The notes under the pieces were generated by a model. That model saw only the letters and a program-made list of their open reading frames with translations. It was not told where the DNA came from and did not search any database. A program made the position numbers and the translations under genes. This document shows, one piece after another, positions 9,913 through 37,591 of a stretch of 64,000 bases of DNA; the first letter of the stretch is position 1; every line of letters starts with the position of its first letter. The stretch covers positions 1,860,001 to 1,924,000 of the forward strand of contig OZ237735.1 of assembly GCA_965178125.1 (NCBI GenBank), read 5' to 3'. Source of the stretch: Bilabrum cf. latius. Its lineage: Eukaryota.

Positions 9913-10023
9913 CGGAGAGAGAATATAATATGTCTGAGTCAAAGCACACACTACCCAACTACAACGACCACCCGGGGCTACTACTATGGCCCAGCTTTGC
10001 ACAAGGCCGGGTCAGGCACGTAC

Positions 10024-10948
10024 ATGTGGACTTACGCTGTGAGAAGATCTAAGAATAGGCGCTTCCCGCAGCACTTGTCCAGCAGAAGGGCCAGACGTTG
10101 GAGGCAGAGGGCTCTGAGGCGCCAAGCACGTGAACTCAGACGATCGCGTGAGCGTGACCTCAGTCGTCTACGGAGGCGTGCTCGCCAAGCATACGTAAGA
10201 CCAGAGAGACCTCAACACCATCAGCGAGGACCAGAGAGTGGGAACGGCGGATCGTATCTAGTAGCGACCGCTGTACTCCTTATGATGGTGGGACTCGTCA
10301 TTTTGTGCGCAACCGGGACGTGCCCAAAGCTGAAGCAGTACCTAGACTCAAGGGGATGGCCCCAGTAGATGCACGCATCGCTGGTGATACCAGCCGCCTG
10401 GATTCTTATAGTGACGCCTACATTGAGAAAACGGAGCAGGATTGGAGTCCTTGCCCTCATAGGGTACCTGTTACCCATGGTAGACGCGACAAGTGACGAA
10501 GACCCGCAGAAGGACGCAGAGGACTGGATCGACAAGCTCAGAAGCATCCCCAAGGAGGTCCTTTTCACTTCGGTAGGGGGACTCGTTACTCTAGTCGGGG
10601 TACTATTGATCTCCTCCTCAATGAGCCGTGTGAACTCATTCTTCTAGCGCGCATATTGGTGGCTCGCGAGTGACGAACTCCGAGAGGGGATAAGACTCAT
10701 CGTACTATCGTTTCAGAGGTGCAAGCGGAACAAGTCGAAACCCAAACACGACGGAAAGACGTTCAAGAACCAGGACGCCGACACCACTAGCACCAATCCA
10801 ACTTCAAGGGGTAGAGGCCGTGGCCGGGGCCGCGGACGAGGCCGAGGCCGAGGGCAGTGGTGGGGTCGAGGTAGAGGTCGCGGACAAGGCACTGGCACGA
10901 TGCAGGCCGCGCAAACGGGCCAGACCACCCACTAGCGTGACCAAACCG

Positions 10949-10980
<32 letters not shown>

Positions 10981-13900
10981 TAGCAGCAGTAGCAGCAGCA
11001 GCAGCAACGGCCCACTACGGGCGCCACGGACACCCCCCCGACAGCAAGATTGACTGCCCTGGAGCAACCAGGACGGGGAATGGCCCCTCAGACACTTTTC
11101 GGACGAATCTCAAACGCATTTGGAGGAGACACCACGACGTAGCCTACAGAAGCTCTGTAGTAGACGGTGGCACCTCAACAACAGACGGCGGCGTTTCCAC
11201 CAGGAGCACCAGCAACGGCAGAAGGTAGTGGCCCAATTCGAGCATCACAGGTTGACCTCCACATCCTCTCGCCGAACAACATAGACAAGAGGGAAGGTGA
11301 TATAGAGGGCACTTGGGGAGTCGACAGTGCGAGGCTCCACCGATTCAAACTGGGGCAGCCCGTTGGAAGTGGAAACGTAGCCTCTGTTCGAATGACGCAG
11401 ATTTTGCAGAGCCCCAGGCAAGCTGATGGATACTGCCTGATAGATTCACTCAGAGCACTGGGGATCCACGTGGACTCAGAGTTCTTCAAAGCCATGGCAC
11501 GCATGCAAGGCCTGTATGCCCGCCTGTGTCTTCCACAGCAAATCACCAGGGACTCCTTCCAAGAGCATCCAATCAACAAGGAAATCCTCTCGCAAGCCAT
11601 CTGGATCATGGAAGACCACCTCATGTTCCCGGATACGGTGAATGAGTGGATGACCGCCCTGCTAAGAACTCGCATGCGCACAACTTCAACGGCGCAAACG
11701 GTGGCTGAGCGAGTACCGGCTGGAACTCGAATTTGGAGGCAGCCAGGTGAGACCGCAGAGACACACGGAAACAGACTACTACAGATGACCGGGGGCAATA
11801 AGCGAGCCCTTGTCAGGTTTTGTCTCGCCCTCCCTGTCGTTGCAGCCCTGTCGGTGTCGGTGTATGCGAGGCGGTCGAACATGAACACGAGCGGCTGTGA
11901 TGCAGGGGAGCAAGCAAGTGCAGAAGCAGCGGCTCTACGGACCGCAGCCTAGCGCCGCACTGATGACCATTTCAAGGTACAAGTAGCCTGGTATATTGAA
12001 GAGGCAGTAGAGACCTATGCAGCGACAGGAGTCACGGTGGGAGAGTACCCCAGCGCGCTCTCTGTCACGCTCGTAGCAGAGATCACAAGGGTGCCCATCA
12101 TGAGCATCGCAGTTGCAGGATAGAATTTCTCCCTCCAGCGCCACCTGCCGAGCTCGACTCAGACGATGGGACCGATAGGGGCATGCGGATGCGTCAGAAT
12201 GTCAGGAGGACATTATTCCGCGGTACGGCTAGCGGACCTGCCACTGAGTATGAGAAATGACACGGGGCTGCGCGGCCCCACATTCTCGTCAGGAAGCAAG
12301 TCCCTCCAGGAAACCCTTACATCGATCCCACACAGTGTTGCCGATTACCTTTGGGGTCCTAGTGGTGGTGGAACTGTGCTATTGACCTCCCCGTATGATG
12401 CACTTGAACCACTAGTAGTAGGAGTCAGCAGTCTCTTTGGACCTCCAGAGCGTGTATCCTGGTAGGGGTGCGCGTAGCTCCCTCTTGCGGTCCTGTCTGG
12501 CCTTGACCCAAGCTCCATCACCATGAACGATCTCCGCACTTTCTTTGGTGAGACAGGGGAAGGTATATAGGGCCTCAGCCTCCGAGGACTTACACTAGCG
12601 GTTATGGCCTTGGCACAGCGCCAGGGGGGCTCAGTGCGGTTATACCCAGCAGACAAGGAGGGGAACAGCCTTGCTAAGTGGTGCGAGCGTCTCAGCTCGG
12701 AGGCCACCGATGCTCAACCGATTCAGGGCTTGGTAAACATTGCCATCTCCCGCACCCACTGTGAGGTCTTTGTCCCTACTGGACTTAATCCACCGGGTGG
12801 GAACAGGGCCAGGGAGCATGCCTGCATGATGTTACGACCTGAGCAACGCGAGGAGGATGGAGATGCGGATGTCAGAATTGTTCGCACACTGTCGACGAGA
12901 GGGGAGCTGAATATGGAACCGGCCATGGTCCTATCAGTCCGCCTTGGAGATCAGCGGAGAACACCAATGGCTGGGGCGGCACTACTCGGAGACCTCCGAG
13001 CTATGCTCACGGATGAGCAAAGAAACGACAGGTCCTGGGTCCCGGAGTGTTTTCCTATCATCAGCACCAACTCTGCAATGTTGGCAGAGAGAGAATCTGT
13101 GTGGTTGGTCCCCCCAGGGACAAGCACGGCCCATCAGCCACGGGGCAAACAGGACGAAACAGGAGGCTGGGGCCTGCACAGGATTAGGGACACGAGTCTT
13201 ACCTCCAAGCAGGTCCGGATTGCAACCAAGAACCTGGGGCGTAAAGGGAACCTGGAGGCGATTGAGGTTGCCCTCACGGAGACCTAGATGCCCGACGTGT
13301 TCATTGGCACGGAGATTCAGGACGCGAGAGGACGCTACGTCACCGATGTCACAGACCTGTACGCGATGGAGACCAGAGCAGGAGACGGGGCCCCGCACGG
13401 GGTATGTATCGCCGTTAAACGCGACTCAGGTCTTATATTGAGACGGTGGGCAGACATGGAAGACGAAGACCTGGACGCGCCGGACTGCCTTGTATGCGAT
13501 GTCCTGCACCATGGTCGATGCATGCTGACTGTGATAGCCTGCTACAACCCACCACAAGGAGCTGCCCTTGGAGCAGAAACGAGAGGCTCAGTATTGGGCA
13601 AGGCTTTCGTGGTCGACTCACATCTGACCCTAGGGCAACGACGGAGCCAAGGACCGGCAGGTAACTTTACCAGGGACCGACTCGTGATTGCCGGCGACTT
13701 CAACCCGACACAGGAGCGGGACCAATAGGGAGCTGGCCACATGGACTGGTACCTGGAGAATGACATGGGAATGATCGACATGTACCGCGCACCCGCAGGA
13801 GACGGGCCCACGCATAGAAGAGGCAACACATTAGATGCCATCTGCATCTCCACATCAGCGCAGCTGCAGCTAGTTTCCAGTGAAGTGGCCCAGGAGCCAG

Positions 13901-16900
13901 GCACCTACTCAGACCACACGGGAGTAATTACAGACTTGCTGGTCGCTATCCCTGAAGCGGAGGAGGAACAGGCAATCCGGCGAGTAGACGAGGCCCCAAT
14001 CGCAATGGAGCAAGATAATGACGCCTCCTTCAGGGCAGCGTACTCACGGATGTTTGGCATGCAACTGCAGCAGCAACGCCTGGTCTGGGACCACTACGTC
14101 AAGGAATTTGAGTTCGTCACAAGCACAGCCCGTGACATTACGTGCCGCGTGCTCGACGCAATCCGCGACTTCAAAAGAACGATGGGTACTCCGGCTGACC
14201 GAGAGGCTGCAGGGCAAGCGGTGACGCAGGCTGTGTCCTCCGTCAAGCTGCTTCTGCAAGGATGCTTCACTGCAGCAGTCGATACGGTGGCAGGCCGACA
14301 GACGACGAGGACTGCACAGGAGGGGCACGCGGAGGTGTCACGAAAGCGCCACCATAGGATCTGGGCGGCACGGACAAGATGGGCTGAGACCTGGGGAGAA
14401 GCCCAAGCTAGCCTGAAGGCCCTCATAGCGGGACCCGCTACTGAGCAAGCACTCTCAGAGGCCAGAGCACGCCTAGCAGCGCATCGCCGAGCCAGCCTAC
14501 GCCTCCAAGAGCGACAGAGGGGGCTCGATGGACGGATGCAGGCAACATTCTGGGGTAGCACGGAGGTGAACCAGCAGGCACAGGAGGGGTAGGAGTACTG
14601 GAAGATGCTCCTCTCCAACCTGGACCACGACCGACGAGCTGTCTTCGAGACCACAGAGAGAGGAGCTCGCAGGACGGGCCAAGCATTACGGAACATGCTG
14701 GGAACAGCCAGCCCGAGGGAAGCCCACCGACGGATTACCGATGCGATCTCTCGGAGGCAACGGTCTGTACCAGGACTGGAGCCGATCACCAACCCAGAAG
14801 GAGAGGTACTCATGGATATCGAGGACGTCCTGGAGGCACACGCACAGCAGCTCTCTCATGCAGGAGGAGATGGAAGTGCGGATGTGGACGGATTCATGAC
14901 CAGGGTTGCGCCACACATGCCCAGGGCAGCGGCACCACTCAACCTGTACTGCAGGTCGAATGCAGAGGTGGACCAAGCACTGGACAGGATCAAGCACAAC
15001 AAAGCTGTGGGACCGGACGGGATCAGGGCTGAACTGCTGATCAAATGCAAGCCCAGCTCCGAGGAGGACGGGCACATGCGGCGAAGCGATGCGCTGCTAT
15101 TCCTACTCAGAGCCATCTATAATCTCACCCTCTTCTCGGGAATACAGCCCGAGGCCTTCCAAGAGGGGTTCATGAGGCCGGTCTCCAAGCGCAAGCAAGG
15201 CACAGGAGTCCCAGGAGTCGACGAATTCAGGCCAATATGCTGGACATCGGCGCTTTCGAAAGTGGTGAGTACTATCGCAAACCAGAAGGTCATGTGGTAC
15301 TGCGAAAAGCACGGACTCTTTGGACAGGACCAGGCTGGTTTTCGCATTGGAAAAAACTGTCAGCAGGCCTACTCAGCGGTGATGGAATGGATCACTCAAC
15401 GAGGAGGGGCTGGAGGTTTCCTGGTGTTCTTTGATATCAAGGGAGCCTTCGACACCTGCAAGTGGAACGTCATCGAGGCCATCATGACGGAACAAGGATG
15501 GGGACGCCAGACGATACGCTTCCTGATGGCCCGCATGCAGGTGGCCATCCGCGTCCGAGACCCACACACCAGAAAGGTCTCTACCAGAGTGCAGAAGACG
15601 GCGGGCACCCCACAAGGGGAGATCCTGTCCCCCACTATCTTCCTGGTACTGATGGGAGTCCTATTGGGGACGCTACGGAAAGAGAGGCTCCAACACGGAC
15701 ACCAACAAAGGATCATTACCGCCACTGGACGATATGTGGAATGCGGACAAGTCGGGTATGCGGACGACTACGTGGCAGTGACATCGCAATGGAACGAGGC
15801 AGTGATGGTCATGAAGCTAGTCAAGAGCCTGTTCGCACTCGCCGGCATGCAGCTGGGAATCAAACCCCTGACCGCACAGGGCCAGGGGACCAAGACAGCG
15901 ATGATGGCCTTTGGCTACGCCCGAGACTCAATTCCTGGGGACATGCCAGACGGCGTCGCATGCAGAGCAGCGGATGCGGGAGATGCTGAAGAGTGGACCA
16001 TCCCACTTGCCTCATCTTACCTCTACCTCGGGCTACTCATCTCAACTCAATCGGTGCGAATCAGCCCAGATGAGACAGTCGGGCTCCCGCAGGCTAGAGA
16101 CATCTGGGTGATCGACATGGTACCACACGTGCGCAGGCGGCTTGCTATGGCGTACCGGGCGGCTAGAGACATCACACGAGCGGCGGTTAACGGAAACTGG
16201 GCAGTCTCTCTGCACGCTCAGCTGCTGCACGCAGGAGCGATCACGAGTGCATTCTACGGAGCAGAGGCAGCGGCATGCGCAACAGGATGGGACTGCCTGT
16301 CAGGAGTGGGACAAGGTACTGGCATCTTCTACGGGATGAAGCTAAACCTAGAAGTCCTCAGGATGCTGGACAAATTCCTGCTGGACATGCGCTGGATGAT
16401 TGCCAGCGGATCGACGCAGGTAAGGCCATTCTCCATGGAAGGCCGATATGTGCCAAGCCTTGCGATGAACACCGAGCTGCTCACTGCATCAGCAGCGGGA
16501 CGAGTTGCAGTGAGCCTGCTAGATCTGATCGAGTGCCCCCTGAAAAAGGGCCTTGACGTAGCAGCCAGGTACATGTACCAGGGCCGACACCTGCAGGGAC
16601 CACCGCTACAGACGGGCCCCCTCGGGGCCGCCCTGGCACTGGGATACAGAATCAAGATGCCTGGGCGGATTCTACATTCTGACGACGCGAAGGACTGGCT
16701 GGGATATCAAGAGACTGCGAAAAGAGTCACGAAATGGAGGCGATCCACGTCCGGAGCTGCGGAACGGGCATTTACAAGCCTTAGCCTGGGATGCTCGCAC
16801 GATCCAGCACTGTCAGACCAAGACCGGGAGCGCGCCGCGTGCGGAGTGGTGATGTTTAACCGATTTGCAACGAAAGGACGGAATGCTTTCGGACCAGGAG

Positions 16901-17643
16901 CCATGGTGACTACAGCGGCAATGCAGGAGTACGGTCATCAAGGAAGACGAATCCTGCGCATCCGAGCCGGACAATACCCACAACAGGGAACGCCCAACCT
17001 CCAGGTATCGGGCACCGCGGTAGAGCAGATGGAGCGGGCTGAGCATGAGCGTCACGCCGAAACGAAGCCGTGGCAACCTGATGCCGGGGATCAGAATAGA
17101 GGGAGGTCGCCCGCCTCTCTTCGGAAGGCATGGGCGAAGACAGCTCTCGCCCTGGATCCCTGGGACGAGAAGCTGGAGCACACCAACAGGGCCAAGCCAA
17201 TCGTCGAAGACGCGCTCATTCGGATAGAGCGCACGATTGCACGGTCCTCGGAACGTACAGCTGTCAAGGTGCTGGCCAACCAAGTGGTGCAGGTGCTCAG
17301 AAACCAGCTGCGCCAGCAGGAGCAACTGACATGCAGGCAGTGGATGCGTGGTGATGCGGCGGCTGCCTTAGCCGCCACGGCCACGCAGGAGCTGATAGCG
17401 GCAACCAATGCGAACGCCCGACTACAGCGACGGATTTTCAAGCCCCACGGCTTGCTAAAGGATATAGAGAGGCAATGGGCCAAAGGCATGAGCGCGTGCA
17501 TGCTCGCCTCTCTGAAGGATCGTGAGACGCAGAGACGGTCATGGAGGAGGAAATGGTGGGTCTCGACCGGGGACCCCGATGTGGGACTGGACCGCGCCTT
17601 GTGCCGGGCACACGCTCCGCACCTGTATGCTTTCTCCTTGTGA
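10024..17643 (+). CDS. ~2,540-aa retrotransposon polyprotein: TM segments, RG tract, poly-Q, OTU-like protease, APE endonuclease, reverse transcriptase
   Basis: One frame open through TAGs to TGA 17641-17643 (also open upstream of this first ATG). APE motifs GTEI, IAGDFN, LDAI, SDH; RT motifs KAVGPDGI, FRPI, QAGFR, FFDIKGAFD, GTPQGEILSP, GYADD; OTU-like ADGYCLIDSL and GGHYSAV. Confidence 0.9.
10951..11007 (+). repeat. Poly-Gln tract made of CAG interspersed with TAG
   Basis: CAG CAG CAG TAG CAG x6 TAG CAG CAG TAG CAG x4 CAA, in frame with the polyprotein. Confidence 0.95.
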
Positions 17644-20800: not shown

Positions 20801-21107
20801 CACACACTACCCAACTACAACGACCACCCCAAGAGGCAATCGCACTGCAGGAGAGAGAGAGAGAATATAATATGTCTGAGTCAAAGCACACACTACCCAA
20901 CTACAACGACCACCCCAAGAGGCAATCGCACTGGGCAGGTCGAACGGATCAGCAAGCTCACGCCATGGGCTCCGCAAGCTGGGCCGCTCCTCCGTGGGGG
21001 AGTTGCGCTGCTTGCGGTCCATCTGCGTTCGCGATGCCTTCGTGTTCGATTGCGTTCGGATCAGCCGCCTCGTCCGGTGCTGCACCCTCAGCTCCTACTG
21101 CAGCTGC
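17869..21107 (-). mobile_element. Tandem array of 5'-truncated RLE-type (CRE/R2-like) non-LTR retrotransposon copies, variants A and B
   Basis: Units start (on +) with (C)GGAGAGAGAATA at 18276, 18378, 18463, 20539, 20619, 20770 and 20850 and have different lengths; the last unit resumes at 46878 after the virophage. Confidence 0.85.
18565..20538 (-). CDS. C-terminal part of an RLE-type non-LTR ORF (zinc knuckle + restriction-like endonuclease), 5'-truncated
   Basis: ORFs 19057-20373 and 18565-19005 join through TAG. CPDSEC...GHMSCC, IHEVV, RMDVVI, ILIDVTSVDP and SGRIG fit the CCHC + PD-(D/E)xK RLE pattern. Confidence 0.8.
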
Positions 21108-21208
21108 TGTTATCCGCCAAAATGTGGAGTTATGATAACTCTATTTCTACTATATAGTAGAAATAGAGTTTACTTATATAAAAACTACACACATTTTGGC
21201 GGATAACA
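21108..21208. other. 101-bp terminal hairpin palindrome (mirror copy 46777-46877)
   Basis: TGTTATCCGCCAAAATGTG / CACATTTTGGCGGATAACA arms enclose the perfect palindrome AACTCTATTTCTACTATATAGTAGAAATAGAGTT. Confidence 0.9.
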
Positions 21209-22475
21209 TAAGAGGTCAATATTAACCACTTCACAACATCTTAAGCCGTAGTCCTTCATAATGTCCTTCACTTGAACATAATAATTTAATAGCTATTTAT
21301 TCATATATCTACCTAATTTAATACCTTCGCGCCGTTAATGTCTATCTGTTAGACCTTTACTTTACTTAATCTGTTGAGTGAATCCCTAGCCTAAGTCTTA
21401 GGATATGCCCGCCCGAAATTGCGGAAATATATAGTCATTTAAGAAAATATGTTCGCAATTCTGGGCGCGTAGGTGTATTGAGTTTTATATTATGATTTGG
21501 TTTTAAGTATCAATTGACATTTACCACTTTAGAAAATAACTAAATAAATACTTAAAGAGATTGACAGAAGTATTAAAGTCTTTTTAATACTTCCAATGAA
21601 AAATTTAAATTAATAAATAAAACTAAACTAATATATCAACTTAATTTATCTCTTTTTTTATTACTTGTCAATCTATACTTAAATAATTGAATATTTAAAT
21701 ATAACTAGAAGGAGATATTAATCACTTTATAAAGTCTTTTATATGTCATCTCTTCAAAACTTCAAATATAAGGGTATCCCCTTAAAAATACATTCTTTTA
21801 TCTATCGCCCGAAATTGCGGTAATATTATAGCTATTCAAGATATATTTCTGCAATTCTGGGCGCGTAGGTGTATTGATTTTTATTTTTCATAATTCTTTA
21901 AATATGTTAAAGTCCTTTGTTTGAGTATATGATATAAAGGAATACAAAGCGGGATAACTTAAAAATGATAAATGTTTTGACGATGACTTTAAAATGACTC
22001 AATGAACTGGTTTATGTCAAGTGTATTACTTTGAAATGATTAATCACTAGATTAAATGGAAAATATAGGATAATAAAATATGGTATAGTATAATACTAGC
22101 GCCCGAAATTGCGGTAATATATTAGGATATTAAGATATATTGTCGCAATTCTGGGCGCGTAGGTGTATTGAGTTTTATATTTTGTTAATTTTGACATAGT
22201 TATCTTATAGAGGTGTAATTTTGTAATAAAGATATTTCTAGTATGTGCTATATTAAATGTCCAGAAATGACGGCCCGAAATTGCGGAAATATATTAGGAT
22301 ATTAAGAGATATTGTCGCAATTCTGGGCGCGTAGGTGTCTTCAATAATTAATAATCAACTACTTCTTTATTTTGATTAATTTTTTTGACTTACCGTTCAT
22401 TTTATTGACCACTTAACGGGATATCACAAAAAGACTTAACCACTTGACGAGATATTTTAAAATAACTAATAATAA

Positions 22476-22550
22476 ATATGACCGCCCCAAATTGTATCTC
22501 CAGATATGACCGCCCCAAATTGTATCTCCAGATATGACCGCCCCAAATTG
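22476..22550 (+). repeat. 28-bp tandem repeat (2.7 copies) of the palindrome's left arm within the TIR
   Basis: ATATGACCGCCCCAAATTGTATCTCCAG twice, then ATATGACCGCCCCAAATTG. Confidence 0.9.
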
Positions 22551-22700
22551 CGGAAATATATAAGTATCAAGAAAATTATGTTTGCAATTCTGGGCGCTCA
22601 CCCGTATTCAATTTTACATATTCACTAACTCATACCACTTATTTTAAGTCATTTTCTAGTTTAAAAAACTTAAAGATTTATCTAGTATATTACTATAGTA

Positions 22701-22910
22701 ATGCCAGATATTAAAGATGTATTAAAATAGGTTCAAGACATTATGGAAGATTATCAAAGACTCAAGGAATAGGAGACCAAAAAGAAAGAAGCTATTAAAA
22801 AAGCTAAATAGAAATATTACCAAAAGAATCAAGAGAAATGGAAGGGGTACTATTAGAAGAGAAAACAGGTTAAGGATGAACCAGATACAGAAGGATTAAA
22901 TAAGACTTAA
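22701..22910 (+). CDS. Virophage hypothetical basic protein (69 aa)
   Basis: ATG 22701 to TAA with four in-frame TAG; TATCTA upstream. Confidence 0.6.
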
Positions 22911-22942
22911 AAATATATTCTATTATTATAGTATTATTAATA

Positions 22943-23155
22943 ATGGATTTAATAGATACCAAATCAAATAATCAAGTTATCAATAAACCAATACATCAAT
23001 TACAAGACTTACCAATAGAGTTTCAAGAGACTATAAGTTATTTACTAATCGGGAAATCCCCAGCAGAAATTGAAAAATTTAAAAATACTCTAGTTGTGCG
23101 CGAAAATCCATCTCAATCCTTTAAGCCAAAATAGTGCGTCTAGAAAATGACTTAA
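22943..23155 (+). CDS. Virophage hypothetical protein (70 aa)
   Basis: ORF extends through two TAG to TAA. Confidence 0.5.
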
Positions 23156-23185
23156 AAAATTATCTTTAGTATAGTATATACTAGA

Positions 23186-25984
23186 ATGACGACCGAACAC
23201 ATATCTAACCCTGTTTATTTCTCAATAGCTCACAACTCTAAACAACCACTTATTAAGTCTTGGTAGAATTTGGAATCTACTAAACTTATCACCAGAAAGT
23301 CAAATCTTAATGTTGGATTACTAACTGGAAGACGTGCAGGTTTCTTTGTCCTTGACTTAGATTGTGAAAAAGAGAAAAATAAAACTGAATTTCAAAATGG
23401 TAAGTTTATTGCGGAATATGGTAGTGTTGATAAGTTTATTCAAGAGATGAATACTTACACTGTCAAGTCTCCCAATGGATATCATTTGTATTTTAAGTAT
23501 GAAGAAGAGTTTAGTAAGAGGTCAGTAAATAGAAAAGAACATATAGATGTGATCACAAATGATAGCTTTATCATGTGTCCTCCTAGCTCTATCAACGGTA
23601 AGAAATACGAACTAATACAAAAGACATCCGTGAAAAGAATACCAACTGACGTCAAGATGTTCATACTACAAAATATCTATTCACCACAACTTACAGCTGA
23701 AGACTACCGTTATATGATTAAACCCGAAGAATACAAACAATACTTATATCAATTAGGTAAAGAGTATTATTCTAATTCATATAACTGGCATCTAGTTTGT
23801 AGAGCTACAAGTTATATCGCTAAATACTTAAATCCAGTAGATGGTAATAAGGTATATGATATATTTGATGAATGGAGCAAACAAGACGTAGAAAGCTATT
23901 AGTCGACTAAGAACAAGATAATTTTTACTCGATTATTACAAAATTCCACTTTTCAATGTGTTGAATGGTTCTTTAATTAGTTAGATAGTGAAAAGAAACG
24001 ACTTAGCCTATATTATCGATACAAGATATTCAAGAATAAAGTAGTCAAGAAAGTCAATTAGAAGATTGACCGTAGATATTTGACTGCTGACGACAAAGGT
24101 CGTTATATTAAATTCTTTAAGAAAGGTATCAACTATGCCGTTAAGTCGGGGGCTGGTTCTGGAAAGACAACTGCTGCTAATGATTTATTTAATAGAGTAG
24201 ATGACAGCTTTTTATCAGTTGTTAGTCGTATTTTATTAGGTAAGCAATAGATGCGTAGTCTTCCAAAATCAACTAAATTCTATCAAGACCATAAATACAA
24301 ATAGGGTGATAGTATTGTTATTACTCCTGAAAGTATTGTTAGTCTTAGCAATTATAACTTTAAGGATTATATTGTCTTTTTAGATGAGTTTAATAGTATC
24401 TTAGAACACTGTTTAAGTTCTACGACTTTATATGGTAGGCGACCAATGAGTTTCATTACTCTTATTCGTGCTCTTACCACTTGTAAGTAGTTCATAGTAG
24501 CAGATGCTGACTTATCTCAAGATGCTCTATATTTCTTAGAATTATTAAAATTAGATTATCAATATATTAGGAATGACAGAAACAGGTTCAAGGGCACCAA
24601 AACTGTATTTGTTAATGACGAACAGACTTTTAGAGATGAGTTAATGAAACACAAGAAATTTATGCTTGCTAGTGATAGTAAGACAAAAGCTGATATAATC
24701 AATGAGTTAATTAGTCTTAAAATTATAGATAACGAGAAAGATAAGAAATTAAATAAAATCTTAATACTTACAGCAGAAAGCGAAGACAAAGACTATGATA
24801 TGGATTTGTTTGATATCATTATCTTCTCACCTAAAGTCATTTACGGGATAGATAGCACTATGACTAGACCAGTCTTTGGTTATTTCAAAGGTCATACTAT
24901 CACACCTCCCCAAATGGTTCAATAGCTTAACAGATGTAGAAACCCATCACATATCACTATATTTTTTGATTACTAGAAAGGACGATCTAGCACATATGAA
25001 AGTCTTTCACAAGTTAAATCTTTTATGGCTACCTCTTTAAAAGACTACGAAGAATTAGTTAAATTTGTCAGTGATACATATCCCGACTTCAACGAGGTAG
25101 AAGTAGAAGACAAAGTAGAAGAAGAAATGAGCAAAGTTAAAATCATATTCAAGAAACTATATCGTAATTATCTTTACAAGGTAGATTGTTATAAGACAAA
25201 CCCTAAATTACATATGATTAAGTAGTTAATTGATACCGGTTATGACGTGTCTTATGATTTATCTGTTAAGATCACCAGATGTAAGGATAAAGAAATCAAA
25301 GATACCATTAAAGAAAAACAACTTGAAAATTTTGATATTAATTGTCTTAATGTCAAGAAGATTAATAAATATTTAGACTTAGATGAAGGTGATATTGACA
25401 AATACAAAGAGTACTTTATTAATAAAGGTAAGTTATCTAATTTATTTAATTTCAATAAATTCTTTAGACAAGATGATAAGCACTTACTTGTGAAAGCAAT
25501 TAATAAAGGCGAGTTTGATATTATCAATGCTAAGTCTAGTTCTAGAAAATTAGTCTTACTTAATAAGATGATTGATACTTTAGGTCTTAAAAGAACTAAT
25601 CTTGATTATAATATCAAAAAGAAAGTATTAGATCAAGACTTAACAGATGAATATAGGACAGTGTATGACTGCCAAAGAAGAAGTAAAGTTGACTTATCCA
25701 CTGATAAAGGTCTTTATTACGAAATACTTAAAGTATATAAATCAATGTTTGGGAAAGACATATTTATGACTTGTAAGAAAAAGAAAATTAACTATGATGT
25801 AGAATTTAATTAGGATATTATTGATGAGATGGAATATATCTGGTCTAACAAGAAAAAGACTCGTGAAGTAGATATATTTGTTGATGATGAAGAGGTTCAA
25901 TTACCCGATGAAGAGATAGAGGTTGACTTAGACCCCGCTTTATTTGTTGATGAGGATAATGATCCACTAGAACAACAAAATTAA
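23186..25984 (+). CDS. Primase-polymerase + PriCT-like + origin-binding (UL9-like) SF2 helicase fusion (932 aa)
   Basis: NVGLLTG...FFVLDLD, KSPNGYHLYF, MCPPS (Prim-Pol); FDEWSK (PriCT-2-like); KSGAGSGKTT, SRILL, FLDEFNS, ADAD, SPKVIYGID, QQLNRCR. Confidence 0.85.
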
Positions 25985-26046
25985 ATTATGACTTATTAAT
26001 AAAAAACTTAATAAGACTTAATAATACATACCTTATATAAAATGAC

Positions 26047-26397
26047 TTAGTGGTCTCTTTTTGTCTTTTTAATTTTTTCTTCTCTCTTCTTCCTTTCACA
26101 TTCACTTCTTTCAACACGATACATCAGCTCCTAGACGTGTTTCACTTGCTCTTCATATTCTAACTGTTCCAATGTACTTTCGAGTTTCTTGATAATATTG
26201 TCGAATTTAAAACTAAAGACATTCTAACGATAACCATCACCTTTGTCTTTTGGTTTCATCCATACATATTTATCAAAGTGATTCTCAATACTTTTACCTA
26301 TACTACTGACTACATCATCGACACCTACACCTTTAACAAGACATTCATCTATAAAATTTTGAGATAGTTCAATTTTGATATCTTCTTTATCTGACAT
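26047..26397 (-). CDS. Virophage hypothetical protein (116 aa, MSDKED...)
   Basis: Open with TAG=Gln; preceded by CGCCAAAA...CTATATATATAG. Confidence 0.7.
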
Positions 26398-27122
26398 TAC
26401 TATATATATAGTGGATATTTTTTGGCGAAAGTAATAAACTAGTCTTAAGATATGACCGCCCGAAATTGCGGTAATATTATAGCTATTTAAGATATATTTC
26501 CGCAATTCTGGGCGCGTACGTGTATTGAATTTATTTAGTTATCTTTCAAGTGGTCAAATTGATCTGTATCACCTTTTTTGATACTCTCAATTGAACCAAT
26601 ATTGCTATTGATTACTAGATCTCGTATGCTCATCATTATAATTGGAAATGTTGACAACATAACATCATCATTTGAATAGTCTTTTTTGTTTAAATCTATT
26701 TCTTTCAAGTACTTAATAAGGTCTCTCTCTGTTTTAAATATATCTGTGTCGTCTTCTAATTTTCCATTTTCATTAACCAGTAATAGCTCAAACTCATCCT
26801 TATCTGCTTCTTTTACAAATGAAATAGATACAAACTTATCAATATCCTTTTTGTTATCTACGAATAAGTAATTAAGTTGTTTAAGCTGTTCACCTTGAGT
26901 TATTCGATATCCCTAATAGAATTCAACACCAGTGAAACATATATCATCAACTTGTTTAATTAAATGGAAGTCTAAATTATCTGACATTACTATATATATA
27001 GTGGATATTTTTTGGCGAAAGTAATAAACTAGTCTTAAGATATGACCGCCCGAAATTGCGGTAATATTATAGCTATTTAAGATATATTTCCGCAATTCTG
27101 GGCGCGTAGGTGTATTGAATTT
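26387..27122. repeat. 146-bp direct repeat (26387-26532; 26977-27122): palindrome + promoter + start codon
   Basis: One mismatch seen between copies; each supplies the Met-Ser-Asp start of a different ORF. Confidence 0.9.
26535..26987 (-). CDS. Virophage hypothetical protein (150 aa, MSDNLD...)
   Basis: Open with TAG=Gln to TAA; same upstream module as the neighbouring gene. Confidence 0.7.
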
Positions 27123-27162
27123 TTAAATTTATTTGAATATAATATTTTTTACCTCTTGGTGC

Positions 27163-27475
27163 GTTGTGGTCTTGGTCTAGTGATATCGTGATTGTTTCAC
27201 AAAGTCAAGGTCGTGGGTTCGATTCCCACCACTGACATCGCCGTGAGTCGTTCTGTAAGTCATACTTATGACAAAGCACACGTCTTGCAAGTCTTTGAAG
27301 GGAGTTTGGATACTGTAGAAGTAGTCGTAAGTGGTTGTAGCAGACTTAGTCGTAAGACTTAATAGGGTTTCAGGTGCATCAGTTCACGTTCTGGCTCCGC
27401 TACAACAATGACTTACGAATGACTTCGCCAAGTAGTCAAACCATCGGTATAATTACTAGCTCAAAGAATTTTTTT
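27163..27475 (+). ncRNA. Putative Pol III ncRNA: degenerate tRNA-like head + long structured body + T7 terminator
   Basis: A-box-like TGGTCTAGTG, T-arm GTGGG-TTCGATT-CCCAC; helices 27246-27263/27408-27424 and 27334-27341/27399-27406; GTAA tetraloop 27348-27359; TTTTTTT 27469-27475. Confidence 0.55.
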
Positions 27476-27480
27476 AATAA

Positions 27481-27903
27481 TTAATCCATATTAGGGGGTT
27501 TCTTATACAAGATAGCAGGGTCGCATCCATTTGTTGGAAAGTCTGCTGGATACCACCCCCATACTACTTTATAAATATCTGTGCTGGTGTCGTGTTCAAC
27601 TTTATGATAAAAAATACAATCATAATGAATACCATTCTAATTACGCACCTCTTGCTCCATCTCTTCAATTATCTATCCTACCTTTAACTTTGTAAAGCCT
27701 CCTTCACTTACATATGTCTTTATATGACCTCTATTATTTACCTATATCTAATCTTTATCTATTACAATGTCTTCAGGATCTCCTTCAAGTTCATCATCTA
27801 AGTAAACCTTTTGAGATTTAAGTGTTGGGTCTTCTCTATGTGGTAAGAATAAGAATGAATACTCCATATAAAGTAAGTCTTCACACGGTGATACTGCTGC
27901 CAT
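27481..27903 (-). CDS. Virophage hypothetical protein (140 aa)
   Basis: Absent from the ORF track; open with TAG=Gln; CGCCAAAA/TATATATAG motif upstream. Confidence 0.7.
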
Positions 27904-28090
27904 AACTATATATATAGTGGATATTTTTTGGCGTAATATTTAAACTAGTCTTAAGGTATGACCGCCCCAAATTGCGGTAATATTATAGCTATTCAAGATA
28001 TATTTTCGCAATTCTGGGCGCGTACCCGTATTGAGTTTTTAAATTTAGTCAATATTTATAACTTTTAAATATTAATTAATAATTTACGAC

Positions 28091-29977
28091 TCACATATTG
28101 AGCTACTTTCTAAGTTTCATAAGTTGAGCCTTAGTTAATTTCTTACCTCCACTGGTCAAAAGACTTCCACCACTAGTTAAAAGACCTGCTCCAACACGTT
28201 CAGCTAAGTCATTCACTTCATCGGGTAAGTATTCACTTACTGCTTGCCTTGCTTTACGAAGAGCTGGTTTCACTTTATCAAATTTAGCTTTAGCTTTCTT
28301 TCCAAAGTCTACCACTTTACGTCCTAAGTCTTTAGCTTTGTTAAAGGCTCTCTTAAAGAATTGCATCACTTTACGACGTCTTCCACCTAATACGTTCTTA
28401 GAGTAGTTCATATTAGAAAATGTATAATTAGAAGGTTTAGCCACTTTCTCAGGGTCAACAGAAGCACTATCTTCACGCCATTCAATAGCGGCACCTCTAG
28501 TATTCACGATAATCTTGTCATAGGCACAGAATAATTGAGCTTTATATCCTTGAGACATAGCAGCGGTTGGGGGTTCGTCATAGGCTACTTGAACACGAAT
28601 ACTAATAGGGTCAGCACTGTTGCTTTGAATAGTTTCAGGAGTATTTAAATCACTAAGTCTAAATAAGAGCCAGCCATTAGATCCGTATACTTTAGAAGCA
28701 CCTCCTACAGTTACATCTAAGTTAGTAAAAGAAGCATACTCACTATTTGATCCATTTCTTTCACTAAGTCTAAAGATATCGTCTTGTGTAAGTTCTCCTA
28801 AAATAGAACCCTAAGACCTAAGTTGTACTTTAATATTGTTAATGGCAAGTGTTCTATGAGGTGTACCACTAGCTTCTCCATATTGAGAATCAACTAAGCA
28901 CACAGCAAACCAAGAAGGGCAAGTCTAAAGTTGATAATTATTAAAAGTATGGACACCTTTAGTAGTGATAGGATTATCAAGTTTAGGCTCTTCATGTAGT
29001 TCAAAGTCAACAGAGTTGTAGAATATTTGTTTAGGTACTTTCTTCAAGAAGTTAAGATGAGTATTATAAGTAAAGACATCAAAATGGATCTAGCAATCGG
29101 ATAAAGCAAAAGCATAGTCTCCATTCCAATCACTTGAAGTATTAAACATCTTATCAATTAAGTTATTTCTCATTTGTAAATTAACATTTAATTGTGGATG
29201 ATCAACAAAAGGTCTAGCATTACCACCCATCATATATTGGAAAGGACGTGCAAGAAGTGCTTCAGAGATTTCAATATGTAATTTGACATAGTCTTGAGTT
29301 GGTGTTACATTATTATTAGGTATTGGAGTATTAGCATCCACTTTTTCAAGTGTTGCGCGGTAATTCTTACCAGGACCGCGAGCTTCCATAATACTATCAT
29401 CATTTACACCCCATTGAAGGACAGACTTAGCAAGACCATTTGCGGCAGTATTAAATTCCCAAGTGTTATCAGCCTAAAAGACAGGACTTATTTGTGCTAG
29501 AGTGGCACGGTCAAGACTTCTAGCTATTAAATTGACTAATTGATAAGGTGATGAACTACGAGATAAGTCTCCCATTTTAACTGTGGAACTTGTGATCATT
29601 GAATTTACCATAAATGTAGAAGGGGCTACCTTATTGACGATATCAGTTTGAGCTACTGCTCCATTGTTCTAACTATCATAGATGTATACGTCAAATGAAA
29701 CTCTTAGACGGGGATTACTGTCAGTCATTCCTTGATTTGATGGCACGACAAAAGTGTAATTACTTCTAAATGCATTAGTTGCGCTAGAGTTACCACCATC
29801 TGGTTCATAGTGGTTTTGGAACTTGGAAGAGTATCCAAGGGTAGTTCCTAGAGTAATAGCTTGACTATCACCCACAAAGTTGAGTTTTTCGTCAGCTATT
29901 TGAGTTACTGGTAGTTCTGAGACGTCATCTACGACTTTGCTTTGTGCTGCTACAGGTACATTATCCATATCAGACAT
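28091..29977 (-). CDS. Virophage major capsid protein (628 aa)
   Basis: Three track ORFs in one frame joined by TAG. Size and segments (YTFVVPS...DS..LR, ISEALLARPF, LQTCPSWFAVC, IFRLSEKNGS, C-terminal GG tail) resemble virophage double-jelly-roll MCPs; adjacent to penton. Confidence 0.85.
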
Positions 29978-30019
29978 TATAAATATATTAAGACTAAAGA
30001 TATTTATTTATTTTTTACT

Positions 30020-30946
30020 TTAAGTTATTAACTTTTTACTTTTAAATAGAGCTTTTATATTAAGTCCTTGTCCAAAAGTAAAGGGTATTTCGTATAAGTT
30101 TCCAAAAGTATCTCTAAAATACGGTACTATACTATAACTATTAAATGCTGATCTATAGAACTATTGCCATCTATGATTTCCTCCACTACTAAAGTTTATT
30201 TTAATAAAACTCGTTCCTGTTGTATTGTCTATCTTGAAATCACTTAAGATATTTTCACTTTGTATCTCTGTACTAGATGTACTTTTATATGATGGCGTAA
30301 ATTCTGGAAGTATTGGAAGTGATGGACTAATAATTTGAATATACTCCATAGTAGGAAACTAATCTAAGGTAGAAGCACTCTATTCATTATATCCATCTAA
30401 TAGATTTATATAAGTATCACTCTTGATGTCTTTACCTTCATCGTCATATTCAAATGTCTCAAATATAGAGAATAAAGGAAAGTTAAAACTTAAAGTCCAC
30501 GCACTTGTAAAAGCCGCTAAACGGGTGAAACTAAAAGTTTTAGTCTTACCGTGATATTCAAATACTATACTATCAGTTGGAATACTAGCATCTCCACATA
30601 AATCACTAAGAGTATTATTAAATTCATTAGATAGGGTCTTAAGACTATAATATAACGACTTGGTTAAGACAATATTACGAGTGTAAGTAGTTCCATCACT
30701 CTTCTTCACAAACGACATCTTATAAATTGACTAATTATCGCTATTCTTTACTTCTTTACTTGCTACAAATAAAGGAATACGACATTTAAGAGTCCATCGG
30801 TCAAGTGATAATAAGTAGTTTTGTGAATTTGTCAAGATATTACCTTGACGCTGTTCATGTATTGATACTGGTCTATTAGTATTAATAGATGTTATAGTAT
30901 CCTATGAGTTAATATAAAAGATATCTGGTTCTTGAATCTCTACCAT
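30020..30946 (-). CDS. Minor capsid (penton) protein (308 aa)
   Basis: EQRQGNILTNSQNYLLSLDRW, ILSDF and RDTFGNLYEI...IKALFK resemble virophage pentons; lies directly upstream of MCP. Confidence 0.8.
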
Positions 30947-31306
30947 TCTATAACATTTATCAAGAAAATAAGTCTTGTCTAATGCCCCAAATTGCGGTAA
31001 TATTATAGCTATTTAAGATATATTTCCGCAATTCTGGGCGCGTACCCGTATTGACTTTTTGAAAAAGTTTTTATTAATTATTTGACTCATTGAAAAAATC
31101 CAATATTCCGAAATTTTAAAAATTTAGTATCTTAAGATATAGTATAATACCAGCGCCCCAAATTGCGATAATATATTAGGATATTAAGATATATTTCCGC
31201 AATTCTGGGCGCGTACCCGTATTCATTTTTATATTTTAGTCTTTTTAATATGGCCACCTTATAGATATCAATTTTCAATATCTAAAAATTTATGGTATAT
31301 GTCATA

Positions 31307-31855
31307 TTAACTAATTATCAAAGTAATAAGTTCATCATTATCTAGTCCTCCTCCATACTTTTTAAAAGCCTTCTTTAATTGACTATTAAACTAATCATTC
31401 GTTAAATTATGAAAGAGAAGTCTGAGCACACTCCACCGACCGCATGTGGCAGAGTTATTTGATATTAATTGATTCTTTTGATTTGAATAGTCAACATTAA
31501 TACCAGCATCTAATACGTGATCTATTAGAAGACTACTTCTATCATATAGCTTCTATGGGTCTATGACTCCTCCTACGACTGGAATATGAGTATCAGGTAA
31601 TTGACCATAACTATCCCAAAAATAAAGAGTATTCTTTGATTTATTAAATATGACCGCAGTATAATGACCGCTCATTGTTGCTCCTTCTACTAAGTTAGGA
31701 TAATAAAGGACAAATAAAGGATTTTCATCTAGAAATTGTCTGATGTTATTAGTATCACTTATTTCTTCATACATTATAACTGGTATATGCTACTTTGTAA
31801 ATGTAAAGTATAGTCTTTGTACCTCTTCAGGACTTAATGCAGTGGTTATATCCAT
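31307..31855 (-). CDS. Adenain-like maturation cysteine protease (182 aa)
   Basis: GHYTA, FWDSYG, Q...ATCGRWS catalytic motifs. Confidence 0.9.
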
Positions 31856-31874
31856 ATACTTAATACTAAGAAAA

Positions 31875-32942
31875 TTAATATACGAACATCTATTTAGGAC
31901 AAGTGATAAAATTATAAGTCTTATTAATACATAGCCATCTATTACCTTCTCCAAACAATTTATAAACACGATTTATAAGACTTGCATCAAATCCTAAATA
32001 TGCTTTCATTAAATATTTGCTAAATTTCCATAGATTTCTCTTAAATAAAATAATATTATGACTTTCCATGACTATTGACCTAGTATTCGCATAATCATTC
32101 GTTAAATGACTTATAACTATCATATTTGTTGAGCTATGTCTTCCAACTTCACCTATACGCTTAATTAAGAATAACGCTCTCTACTTTTTATCACCGTTTA
32201 AGGCTTCATAATCATCAAATACCACCACAGAAGGACCCTATTTTGCCCATTCTTCATACAATGGAGTAGTGGTAAATGATGCCTTTGTCTTGTCTTTACT
32301 TGTTGGTTTCATTCTTTCTATCTCTATCTCTCTTTTAATTAATTCATGAGGTTCTAATGACTTCTTTTCCTACCTAAAGAATATCTTTTCTTCTTTGTAT
32401 TTCCTCATTAAGTCATCATAACTATCGTTTCTATCTACTGCTACTAATTTATCAATATCAATAAAATTACCATATTTTAAATAAGTTGGATTTGTTTCCT
32501 GTACTGGTGTAATGACTAAAACCCTCTTCTTTGGAATGAACATATGATAATACTTGAGTAAAGACTTAGCAATATAAGACTTACCAGCACCAGCCTAACC
32601 ACTTAAATAGTGTATTTGTCTTTTGGTCTCATCATCAAAGAATGGGACTATTTCAAACTAACTCTTATCATCTATTCTTAACTCGTTAGTCTTTCTAACT
32701 AGTTTTTTATTTCCATTCACTAGCTTACACATCTCTTCACGTAATGCTTTTTTATTCTTCTCATATTTAATTGCTCTCTTTCCATAATACTCTTCAAGTA
32801 AATCATCACTTATATCTTCTGGAGTTATGACTTTTTCCCCTACATCTTCACTAAAAAAGACGCTTTTGTTCCTCTTCTTGTGCTTGTATTCTCTTAAAGC
32901 AACTAAATGACTATTTGGTATTTCATCGTATGATAATGACAT
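31875..32942 (-). CDS. A32/FtsK-like DNA packaging ATPase (355 aa)
   Basis: Walker A G[TAG=Q]AGAGKS, Walker B VVVFDD, GRH, VISH. Confidence 0.9.
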
Positions 32943-33087
32943 TATATACTATATGTTAATATTTATTATTTTTCTAATAATTAGTGGGTTCAAAAGGTAT
33001 ATTGTGAGAAGTAGCCATTTCAAATATTCATTTTAGAGTGCACAGTCTTAAGAATATGATTAAAATATCATATAAATATATAGAATT

Positions 33088-33609
33088 ATGGATCACAAAC
33101 TTCTAATTTCAAAAAGATATATTAAATCATTTTATAAGTACTCATGTAAAGTTAATTAGTACTATAAGAAAGCAGAAGAGTAGCGTAATATGATGACAAC
33201 TGATAGAGTAGATTGCTATACTAATTATATAACTTGTCTTCTAATTGCTCGTAAGTATAGAGAATGTATTATCAATTGCAGTAAAAAGTACTATTATGAT
33301 ATGGACTTTACGTTAAATGATAACGGATATGTATCGTCTTCTTTTGATCACTTAAAAACATTCAACTTTGACTATGCTAATTCAATGAAAATAAATGAAT
33401 GTATAGAACAATTTAAACAATCCGTTGAGTGGGAAAGGTTATTTAAAAAAGACTTTTTTCAAATGTAGTTAATTTATGAATATCTAAAATTTTTCAGACT
33501 TAAGTGCTATTTACATGACATACGACCAGATAATCCCCTCCATCCGACAGAAAAAGTTAATAAACTTAACGAAGAAGACATTGACGAGCTATTTTATAGT
33601 GACTGGTGA
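33088..33609 (+). CDS. Virophage hypothetical protein (173 aa)
   Basis: Open with TAG=Gln from ATG 33088 to TGA; palindrome immediately after the stop. Confidence 0.65.
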
Positions 33610-33803
33610 GACGACCGCCCCAAATTGCGGTAATATTATAGCTATTTAAGATATATTTGTGCAATTCTGGGCGCGTAGGCTGTTAGAGGTTTTACATTTT
33701 CGGGTCAATCTAATGAAAATCTCACAATATAGGGCGCCCCAAATTGCGGAAATATATAAGTATCAAGAAAATTATGTCTGCAATTCTGGGCGTTTAGGTG
33801 TAT

Positions 33804-34622
33804 TCAATTATGTGAAACTAATTTAACGACCCTTTTATTGAGCTAGTCTTCTAAATATTTAATTATAATACTTACATCTTTACTATTGAACGTATTAAAG
33901 TATTGATATACTGGTTTAATAAGTCCTAATTTACGTACATCATTCTTAAGTCTATCAATAACTCTATTTTTTAATTTAAATGGAACTGTTGGAAGTAATA
34001 AACTTTTTAATCTTGTAATAGTCAAGTAAAGAAAGCCTACATCGGGATTCTTTATAAGTTGTTCAATCTCTTCCTGTTTCTTCTTTTGCCCTAATTCGTC
34101 ATATATAACATCTAGTCTTTTTAATATCTTGAAATATTTTCGTTCTTTTTGTAAGTCTTTTATGTCATCTATCATCCTATCTGCTACTTGTTTAGGCTTC
34201 ATTTTCAATATCTTACCTCCAATATCATATAATATACTAACCTCTTCAATATATCCAGTATAGACCCAACTTTCAACGAATATCATAGGATTATTCTACT
34301 ATTTTAAAGATTTTAATATTTTAGGTCTATTAGTATCAAGAAATGTATCTAAAGAGACGCCATTATCATCATATTCAACGTTATAAATATGTATTAATCT
34401 ACTACCTCTTAAGGTCTTTAATTCATTTATAACACTATTGACATCAGACAATTTAACGGGAGAGTATAGGTCTATGTCTCCAGCCCAAAGTGAAAGCATA
34501 TTATGAGTAAATGAATATGAACCATTTAAATAAATATCACTTCTATTTATTTTAAAAGACTTGAATATCTTATTATCAAATCGTGAATAATACTTTAGCT
34601 ACTACTTTGTTAATTTAACCAT
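33804..34622 (-). CDS. Putative Pol-beta-like nucleotidyltransferase-fold protein (272 aa)
   Basis: YLNGSY...AGDIDL (GS...DxD) near the N-terminus; two track ORFs joined by TAG. Confidence 0.6.
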
Positions 34623-34656
34623 ATATTAATAAGAAATATTATAGTTCTTTATTATA

Positions 34657-35100
34657 ATGGACGATTTCATAAGACAAAGACTATAGCAACTAGGTAAATC
34701 ACCCTCTAATGCCAAAGTCAACAATTTAAAAGACGAATTTAAGCAAAAACTACTTGAATTATTTGAAGACTATCAAATGAATGGTGTTCAAGGTGGTTCA
34801 AAAGTTGGACGCTTTTTTAAAAAAGTAGGTCGTAAATTCAAGAAAGTAGGGCGAACAATTAAAAAAGGTATTAAAAGTAATGTAGGAAAGGCAATACGAA
34901 CAGGTCTTAAGTTTGTAGCCCCTGAAGTTGGTGTCCCTCTTGATGCTGCACTTAAGACTGTAGGACTTGGAAAGGCTAAGCGTAAGAGGAAACCTAATCC
35001 AAAAGCTAAAGCAAGAGGTAAATTAGTGAGTGCGGTAATGAAGAAGTATGGCGTAAGTCTAGGAGAAGCAAGTAAAATATTAAAAGAAAATGGTATGTAA
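34657..35100 (+). CDS. Basic virion core-like protein (147 aa)
   Basis: VQGG followed by amphipathic KVGRFFKKVGRKFKKVG; Lys/Arg-rich; C-terminal VMKKYGVSLGEASK. Confidence 0.7.
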
Positions 35101-35139
35101 ATTTAATAATATTATCTATTATCATAATATAATTATACG

Positions 35140-36582: not shown

Positions 36583-36825
36583 ATGGTATATACTATAATA
36601 TTTTAATTTAAAAATATTACATTGTAAGAGGTGGCTATATTAAAAATGACTAAATTATAAAAATCAATACGCCTACGCGCCCAGAATTGCGGAAATATAT
36701 CTTAATATCCTAATATATTATCGCAATTTGGGGCGCTAGTATTATACTATATCTTATACTACTAACTTTTTAAAATCTCGTAATTTAAAAAAAAAATATC
36801 TAGTCTAGCTAATATAATATAAGTA

Positions 36826-37548: not shown

Positions 37549-37591
37549 TTGAGTTTAATTATAGAAATATCTTTTTTATTAATATAATAAA

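Follow-up and report, generated by a model that had tools for sequence, protein, structure and literature searches.

How a linear, integrating virophage or polinton-like virus (PLV) copies its ends when it has no protein-primed polymerase is an open question, and it is raised by one locus of Bilabrum cf. latius (contig OZ237735.1 of assembly GCA_965178125.1, positions 1,860,001 to 1,924,000 of the forward strand). This whole stretch of 64,000 nucleotides is called the window here, and positions are counted from its first letter. Within it, a virophage-like virus is integrated in the DNA of a GC-rich protist whose code assigns glutamine to TAG, at a site that is still polymorphic for the insertion. 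The element is a clean test case, with perfect 1.5-kb terminal inverted repeats (TIRs), a strong composite fold-back at its termini, and a single recognisable replicase. An earlier note, made from the letters of this DNA, had proposed that it replicates through its terminal hairpins without a protein-primed PolB (pPolB). We examined that proposal together with the borders, genes, and genetic code of the element.

Borders and terminal fold-backs

The GC content of the window is ~60% except at 21-40 kb and 42-47 kb, both of which are at ~30%. The element occupies 21108-46877 (25,770 bp, ~30% GC) inside ~60% GC host DNA, and its size is 24 kb once a 1,780-bp insertion is discounted. It ends in inverted repeats of 1,533 bp each that are 100% identical; the repeat search gave 1,543 nt at 100%, of which the outer 10 nt were read as flank. 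In the left TIR, the longest open reading frame (ORF) is at most 61 aa, and a 28-nt unit occurs in ~3 repeats. By direct reading, the element has 5'-TG...CA-3' tips, with GCTGC on either side. The features of the two ends are as follows.

21103..21107, no strand: target-site duplication GCTGC, left copy (direct reading; empty-site contigs from runs X3, X5, and X6 with one copy)
21108..22640, no strand: left TIR, 1,533 bp (repeat search)
21108..21208, no strand: left terminal fold-back, 101 bp, tip starting with TG (DNA fold -32.8 kcal/mol, z -13.6)
45345..46877, no strand: right TIR, 1,533 bp (repeat search)
46777..46877, no strand: right terminal fold-back, 101 bp, tip ending with CA (DNA fold -32.2 kcal/mol, z -13.3)
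46878..46882, no strand: target-site duplication GCTGC, right copy (direct reading; empty-site contigs)

In contigs from three public runs of one study (X3, X5, and X6), the left flank (to 21107) was joined to the right flank, with a single GCTGC between them. Furthermore, in X3 and X5, two contigs each led from a different flank to the element tip at 21108. Contigs from the runs of two studies spanned 20301-40300. The empty-site and alternative-flank contigs establish where the element ends and that 5 bp of the target were duplicated, and they reveal a polymorphic insertion; the other flanks joined to 21108 indicate that the element is present at more than one locus. The TG...CA tips, the 5-bp duplication, and the empty allele show that the insertion was made by an rve-type integrase reaction. 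The persisting polymorphism of the insertion makes recent activity of the virus probable.

The fold-back at 21108-21208 is the exact reverse complement of that at 46777-46877. Each has a 19-nt arm (TGTTATCCGCCAAAATGTG) at one end and the complementary 19-nt arm at the other; between the arms lies a perfect 34-nt palindrome, set off from them by 10 unpaired nt on one side and 19 on the other, which gives an asymmetric bulge. When both ends were folded as single-stranded DNA, shuffled sequences gave a mean of -5.4 kcal/mol (standard deviation 2.0) and 0 of 200 folded as well, which excludes a chance origin of the fold-back. At its inner end (21198-21208), the left fold-back reads GGCGGATAACA, identical to the right tip (46867-46877). 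Coordinates and folding thus bear out the earlier description of each terminus as a 101-bp fold-back whose inner end repeats the opposite tip. Since the 19-bp arms are exact complements, inversion of the palindrome leaves the integrase-recognised tip unchanged; the claim that CA ends usable by the integrase are presented in either orientation of the palindrome is therefore true by construction, the same 19-bp tip being present after inversion. The 19-base tip had no match in viral_contigs and none in metagenome_contigs.

The element has no recognisable protein-primed PolB and one recognisable replicase

ORFs of at least 50 aa numbered 66, from which 36 element ORFs (24 likely genes and 12 nested) were picked for a Pfam scan at E ≤ 1. 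The remaining 30 were the replicase, which was scanned apart, the frames of the GC-rich insertion, and further small nested frames. The 36 ORFs matched 45 Pfam families; no DNA polymerase family was found among the best 25, which included rve, MCP_V20_C, Chromo, DUF5754, and AAA families, and the other 20 were worse than E 0.05. With the replicase included, none of the 37 scanned ORFs matched a PolB family. These results show that the element is without a recognisable pPolB, as the earlier note had stated for PolB in any ORF. Apart from the replicase, the major capsid protein (MCP), and the integrase, the longest ORF encodes a highly charged protein of 480 aa with a weak SAP match.

The only recognisable replication protein of the element is the following.

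23186..25984, + strand: replicase, 932 aa, with 11 TAG codons read as glutamine (Pfam, profile, and structure searches)

It reaches 932 aa only when its 11 in-frame TAG codons are read as sense. The protein consists of an archaeo-eukaryotic primase (AEP)/primase-polymerase (PrimPol) domain at aa 13-153, a helical PriCT-like region at ~180-265, a superfamily 2 (SF2) helicase core at ~297-714, and a helical C-terminal region at ~715-890. Pfam assigned Prim-Pol to aa 13-153 (E 8.9e-14), PHROGs a 'replication' family to aa 297-714 (7e-25), and NCBIfam the CyRepA1 plasmid replication helicase to aa 317-710 (1.9e-33, under its cut-off). The full architecture is common to 29 database proteins. In a 27-sequence alignment, the AEP residues D57, D59, H100, and D121 and the helicase residues G326-K327, D400-E401, D440-A-D442, Q579, R583, and R585 were invariant. 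Pfam found ResIII in 14 of the 27 family members, DEAD in 10, PriCT_2 in 9, and Herpes_ori_bp in 4; the replicase itself had no Pfam Herpes_ori_bp match. Single-sequence phmmer of the replicase against PDB gave no match, and the family profile was required; with it, the origin-binding protein of herpes simplex virus (HSV; 9hgj, E 1.4e-8) was detected, as was the pRN1 prim-pol (1rni, 8e-6).

The structure of the replicase was also predicted with AlphaFold (AF2; predicted local distance difference test [pLDDT] 82.8, predicted template modelling score 0.72). With this model, Foldseek gave the origin-binding protein from HSV-1 on OriS DNA as the best PDB match (E 1.4e-11), so that herpesvirus UL9 structures are the top solved match. 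VIA-align placed the HSV-1 protein first as well, at Z 25.2 over 492 aligned residues (root-mean-square deviation [rmsd] 12.1) and at Z 25.1 over 383 (rmsd 3.9), followed by generic SF2 helicases from Z 21.8. When the C-terminal model alone (pLDDT 70) was compared with 48,161 chains, UL9 547-822 came first with the longest alignment (158 residues), although the match was weak (Z 5.4). Among predicted viral structures, the best matches were full-length giant-virus PrimPol/origin-binding proteins, led by that of Harvfovirus (E 9e-45), with others from Catovirus, Hyperionvirus, Bodo saltans virus, and Marseillevirus. These giant-virus proteins have the same order of AEP, helical region, and SF2 helicase, whereas identity between the giant-virus or UL9 proteins and the replicase is 13-20% and the replicase is encoded by a 24-kb integrating virophage. 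These results show that the replicase joins a PrimPol to an SF2 helicase of UL9-like type and is built like the giant-virus PrimPol-origin-binding proteins. The earlier reading of a 932-aa primase-polymerase fused to an origin-binding-type SF2 helicase is thereby confirmed, with Prim-Pol found by Pfam and UL9 as the closest solved helicase.

Proteins of this type are known. Fusions of AEP with a UL9-like SF2 helicase are described for mimiviruses (mimivirus R8), African swine fever virus F1055L, ostreid herpesvirus 1, and yaraviruses, and the mammalian UL9 proteins lack the AEP domain, in the passages concerned of PMC11253617. In small eukaryotic double-stranded DNA (dsDNA) viruses, AEP-helicase fusions are common, with SF2 in a sizable minority, according to the relevant parts of an October 2026 survey (bioRxiv 10.64898/2026.10.13.758929), and those passages draw no link to terminal palindromes. 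The size of the present family, with 991 cluster representatives at E ≤ 1e-30 and 51 IMG/VR loci, agrees with that minority. The replication modules named in the corresponding passages of a review are pPolB, pPolB with a superfamily 1 helicase (pPolB-S1H), PolA with a superfamily 3 helicase (PolA-S3H), and AEP-S3H (PMC11161782). In the phage collection, matches to the replicase were partial only, to bacteriophage primases and helicases, and no named virophage was among them. Only one of the 51 related loci (L018) shares the ATPase, protease, and integrase in addition to the replicase. The replicase thus behaves as a movable module, in agreement with the literature. Three complete relatives (G001-G003) have neither pPolB nor rve, and PF03175 matches nothing in them.

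The earlier note had taken it as established that rve integrase is paired with pPolB. This holds for mavirus and Polintons, and the element shares with them the rve-chromodomain integrase, the TIRs, a target-site duplication (TSD) of 5-6 bp, and a module of putative ATPase, protease, and penton with the MCP, but pPolB, a defining Polinton gene, is absent from it. As a general rule the pairing is too narrow. The mid-GC endogenous mavirus-like elements (EMALEs) of Cafeteria burkhardae possess rve together with a long primase/helicase but no pPolB (Hackl et al. 2021, as described in the passages of PMC8547959 on these elements). According to the same passages, they resemble the present element in being integrated and mavirus-like, without pPolB, with primase/helicase and rve, with TIRs, and in being invaded by Ngaro tyrosine-recombinase retrotransposons. 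Unlike it, they have their own tyrosine recombinase, and their helicase is discussed there as a helicase-polymerase fusion; the two replicases are compared here by description. Terminal palindromes are not mentioned in those passages (PMC8547959).

How the ends may be copied

We tentatively read the 101-bp palindromes as cis-acting telomeres, or hairpins, and origin of a linear genome. In this proposal, which draws on the anatomy of the ends, the helicase would unwind an element end and the 3' strand would fold back on itself. The fold-back could then prime synthesis of the end, as in parvoviruses, or alternatively be the structure on which junctions formed in replication are resolved, as in poxviruses. 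Priming at other places, and perhaps elongation, would fall to PrimPol, possibly together with the polymerase of a helper giant virus, and each inversion of the palindrome would restore the same integrase-recognised tip. The strong fold and its location at the extreme tips speak for this reading. The inverted terminal repeats of parvoviruses and the hairpin telomeres of poxviruses are imperfect self-complementary termini with unpaired bases, the same at both ends, and known hairpin telomeres have an asymmetric bulge comparable to that of the element. The termini of the element are likewise self-complementary at both ends. It differs from those viruses in that no Rep nickase or resolvase was found, in its dsDNA genome integrating by rve, and in that flip/flop was not observed.

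Several observations weigh against hairpin ends. No HUH Rep nickase, resolvase, or telomere-resolving enzyme family was found by Pfam among the ORFs, ~14 of which match no family. These unassigned ORFs leave room for a novel enzyme, and the integrase or enzymes of the helper may be used instead. As to flip/flop, one genomic copy was seen; its two ends do not differ in orientation, as must be so in any perfect TIR. Among the contig variants listed, there is no palindrome variant at 21127-21189, and contigs drop rare forms. None of the 69 contig ends of the 51 related loci had a comparable fold-back (best -14.8 kcal/mol), and true ends may be missing from these contigs. The sole examined relative with rve (G004) had neither TIR nor fold-back at its contig ends, which may not be true termini. 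The Z score of the C-terminal UL9 match ties with those of unrelated chains (5.2 and 5.0), and an origin-binding-like domain is not established. Finally, two of the five examined relatives with the same replicase family (G002 and G005, both complete) are classed as having direct terminal repeats, which indicates that the replicase family does not need hairpin ends. The earlier proposal of hairpin-primed or concatemer-resolution replication is therefore plausible, and its anatomical part stands, but the mechanism is drawn by analogy, and the missing nickase or resolvase and the relatives with direct terminal repeats count against it.

An origin of the oriS type provides an equally economical account. 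OriS is a palindrome with two inverted boxes for the origin-binding protein. The two inverted 19-bp boxes of the element might correspondingly be bound by a UL9-like dimer that melts the AT-rich centre, a possibility that we regard as real if on the whole unlikely. De novo priming by PrimPol would follow close to the tip, and concatemers or circles, rather than fold-back priming, would prevent the loss of ends; this second part we also regard as possible but not likely. The first rank of UL9 547-822 in the C-terminal search fits such an origin, and the direct terminal repeats in relatives of the replicase fit circular genomes with internal origins. However, the low Z score of that match tempers the former point, and the candidate boxes coincide with the integrase tips, so that their conservation may serve integration alone.

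That the palindrome serves integration only seems to us rather unlikely. Each end would then carry two inverted integrase-binding copies, and replication would use internal origins, PrimPol priming, and a polymerase of the helper virus or host. The TG...CA tips and the 5-bp TSD are the signature of rve, and the rve-less complete relatives G001-G003 have no strong fold-back at the contig ends examined. Retroviral-type integrases require only the terminal ~20 bp, and the perfect 34-nt inner palindrome and the fold of -33 kcal/mol exceed the needs of paired binding sites. On the other hand, the palindromes of Halocafeteria are tied, in the passages of the study that treat them, to particular rve integrases besides non-pPolB replicases (10.64898/2026.07.28.741278).

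A further variant, rolling-hairpin replication with the retroviral-type integrase doubling as the terminal-resolution nickase, is improbable. The inner palindrome boundary repeats the tip ...GGCGGATAACA, and a cut after the inner CA would fall where parvoviral Rep nicks; the PrimPol-UL9-like replicase would then extend the 3' end of the fold-back, with no dedicated polymerase.

It is very improbable that the fold-back is incidental, whether left behind by DNA repair or strand annealing when the element excises or integrates, or produced by the assembly. Accidental annealing after single-strand breaks is named as an alternative by the Halocafeteria authors in the part of their text on this subject (10.64898/2026.07.28.741278). 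Against it, the same structure stands at both ends within a perfect 1,533-bp TIR, and none of the 200 shuffles folds as well. Moreover, contigs of the runs of two studies cover the stretch, and the empty-site and alternative-flank contigs of one study (X3 and X5, with X6 also for the empty site) break at 21107/21108. That the hypothetical ORFs hide a divergent or split PolB is scarcely credible: the ~14 ORFs without a family and the fact that Pfam can miss very divergent pPolBs leave some room for it, but the longest other ORF is the charged 480-aa protein with its weak SAP match only, and PF03175 is also matchless in the three complete relatives.

Returning to the hairpin reading, its closest precedent, and an independent argument for it, is found in the endogenous virophages and PLVs of Halocafeteria seosinensis, which have terminal palindromes beside their TSDs, preferentially in elements whose replicases are not pPolB and whose rve integrases are of particular kinds, and for which hairpin priming has already been proposed (Haro et al., July 2026, bioRxiv 10.64898/2026.07.28.741278, in the sections concerned). 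As far as those sections describe them, they are, like the present element, low-GC elements in a higher-GC protist with TIRs, palindromes at the tips adjoining the TSD, rve, and replicases other than pPolB, among them primase-polymerases. By contrast, their host has 47% GC, Ngaro elements are not present, and 'genetic code' and 'stop codon' are not mentioned in the main text; an example palindrome given there is 52 nt, compared with the 101-bp composite fold-back here. The design is thus not new in kind, since terminal palindromes with a hairpin model, rve without pPolB, and AEP-SF2 fusions have each been reported.

Other genes, insertion, and genetic code

The other annotated genes of the element and its insertion are listed below.

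28091..29977, - strand: major capsid protein of virophage type, 628 aa (Pfam MCP_V20_C at 30.4 bits; cut-off 27)
30020..30946, - strand: putative penton (minor capsid) protein, 308 aa (assigned only by its place between the protease and MCP genes; no family match)
31307..31855, - strand: putative cysteine maturation protease, 182 aa (weak Peptidase_C57, E 0.0043, under cut-off; found by tblastn in 3 of 51 related loci)
31875..32942, - strand: putative ATPase for packaging, 355 aa (families AAA_10 and AAA_22, E 1e-5, slightly under cut-off; tblastn to L018, 1.6e-21)
40123..41902, - strand: GC-rich insertion, 1,780 bp, foreign to the virophage (repeat search, Pfam, contigs)
42031..43686, - strand: integrase, 551 aa, with rve core and C-terminal chromodomain (Pfam rve 32.8 bits, cut-off 32.6; Chromo 30.3, cut-off 25.1)
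44738..45145, - strand: DUF5754-like protein, 135 aa (PF19058, E 5.9e-6; accompanies the replicase in 9 of the 51 related loci)

The MCP, whose C-terminal domain is of the Sputnik V20 type, scored above its cut-off, and by this predicted domain the element has the capsid protein of a virophage. In the word-index search the MCP had only two close homologs, which indicates that the capsid lineage is divergent. With the putative assignments above, the gene order of the element is ATPase-protease-penton-MCP, and this order is described for mavirus-like elements in the passages of PMC8547959 on them. The DUF5754-like protein may be an accessory replication factor; it is a neighbour, at up to 51% identity, in otherwise unrelated virus contigs (e.g., L017, L030, L013, L014, L040, and L031).

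The GC-rich insertion contains an ORF (40625..41887) for a tyrosine recombinase of 420 aa with 4 TAG codons, as well as split direct repeats in Ngaro order (pairs of 176 nt and 130 nt), and has no reverse transcriptase. In contigs from X1, X3, and X5, position 40122 is connected with a copy of the repeat downstream of the insertion, and several other flanks precede 40123. These joins indicate that the insertion is multicopy and is absent from some copies of the element.

An inverted-repeat module of ~65 nt, with arms of ~14 nt and an AT-rich loop of ~30 nt, occurs at 26 sites between 21411 and 46564 (e.g., 27048-27110). Relative to genes it is intergenic only, found in none of three divergent, two of three convergent, and 8 of 16 tandem gaps. 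The gene-free TIRs contain it too, with 5 copies in the left TIR and ~7 motif matches per TIR. When folded as RNA, four of five tested copies gave z values of -3.6 to -4.7. The module looks like a hairpin signal for transcript 3' ends, and mimiviruses have hairpin signals at transcript 3' ends. The hairpin repeats at gene 3' ends and the giant-virus-like replicase are indirect hints of dependence on a co-infecting giant virus.

On the host side, the region is flanked by two very large paralogous genes (3..7730 and 48535..60489) that have long near-identical stretches, as judged by eye; a B-lectin domain was confirmed, and an OTU-like motif was seen by eye only. Another host ORF, 9733..17643, has 2,636 codons with RVT_1. 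The large paralogs and the RVT_1 ORF suggest a repeat-rich host neighbourhood. The host flank directly left of the insertion contains 77-nt tandem repeats at 20542-21000, whose copy number differs among runs (joints skip 213-290 nt).

The genetic code was examined in both element and host. With table 11 or the standard code, the AT-rich part of the window has almost no long ORFs. When TAG was dropped from the set of stops, ORFs of 942, 638, 484, 385, and 330 codons (stop to stop) appeared, with 24 likely genes from ATG. In the element genes (n = 24, 22701..45363), 90 sense TAG codons occur among 5,981 codons, and the stops are TAA (18) and TGA (6). At the TAG positions of the replicase, comparison with 24 distant homologs showed Q in 21 at position 355, 22 at position 580, and 11 at position 435, whereas position 680 aligns with I/L rather than Q. 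The three host frames, of 2,575-3,984 codons, hold 17-22 TAG each: 48535..60489 is uninterrupted over 3,984 codons with 22, 3..7730 has 20, and 9733..17643, which includes a reverse-transcriptase domain, has 17. Since the host flanks and the element both need TAG as sense, a common code is indicated. Judged from the reading frames and the alignment, host and element both read TAG as glutamine, with TAA and TGA still as stops. No tRNA gene was found anywhere in the window, and the element thus has no suppressor tRNA.

Compared with the replication design, this code is the more unusual aspect of the element. Stop-codon reassignment in virophage hosts has been inferred from an ochre suppressor tRNA (PMC6905037), and alternative codes have been explored in giant-virus bins (PMC13524828); in our literature searches on virophages and variant codes, we found no virophage in a host that reads TAG as glutamine. 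The element is a virophage fully adapted to this code, and since virophage and host both use it, any helper giant virus must cope with TAG as glutamine too.

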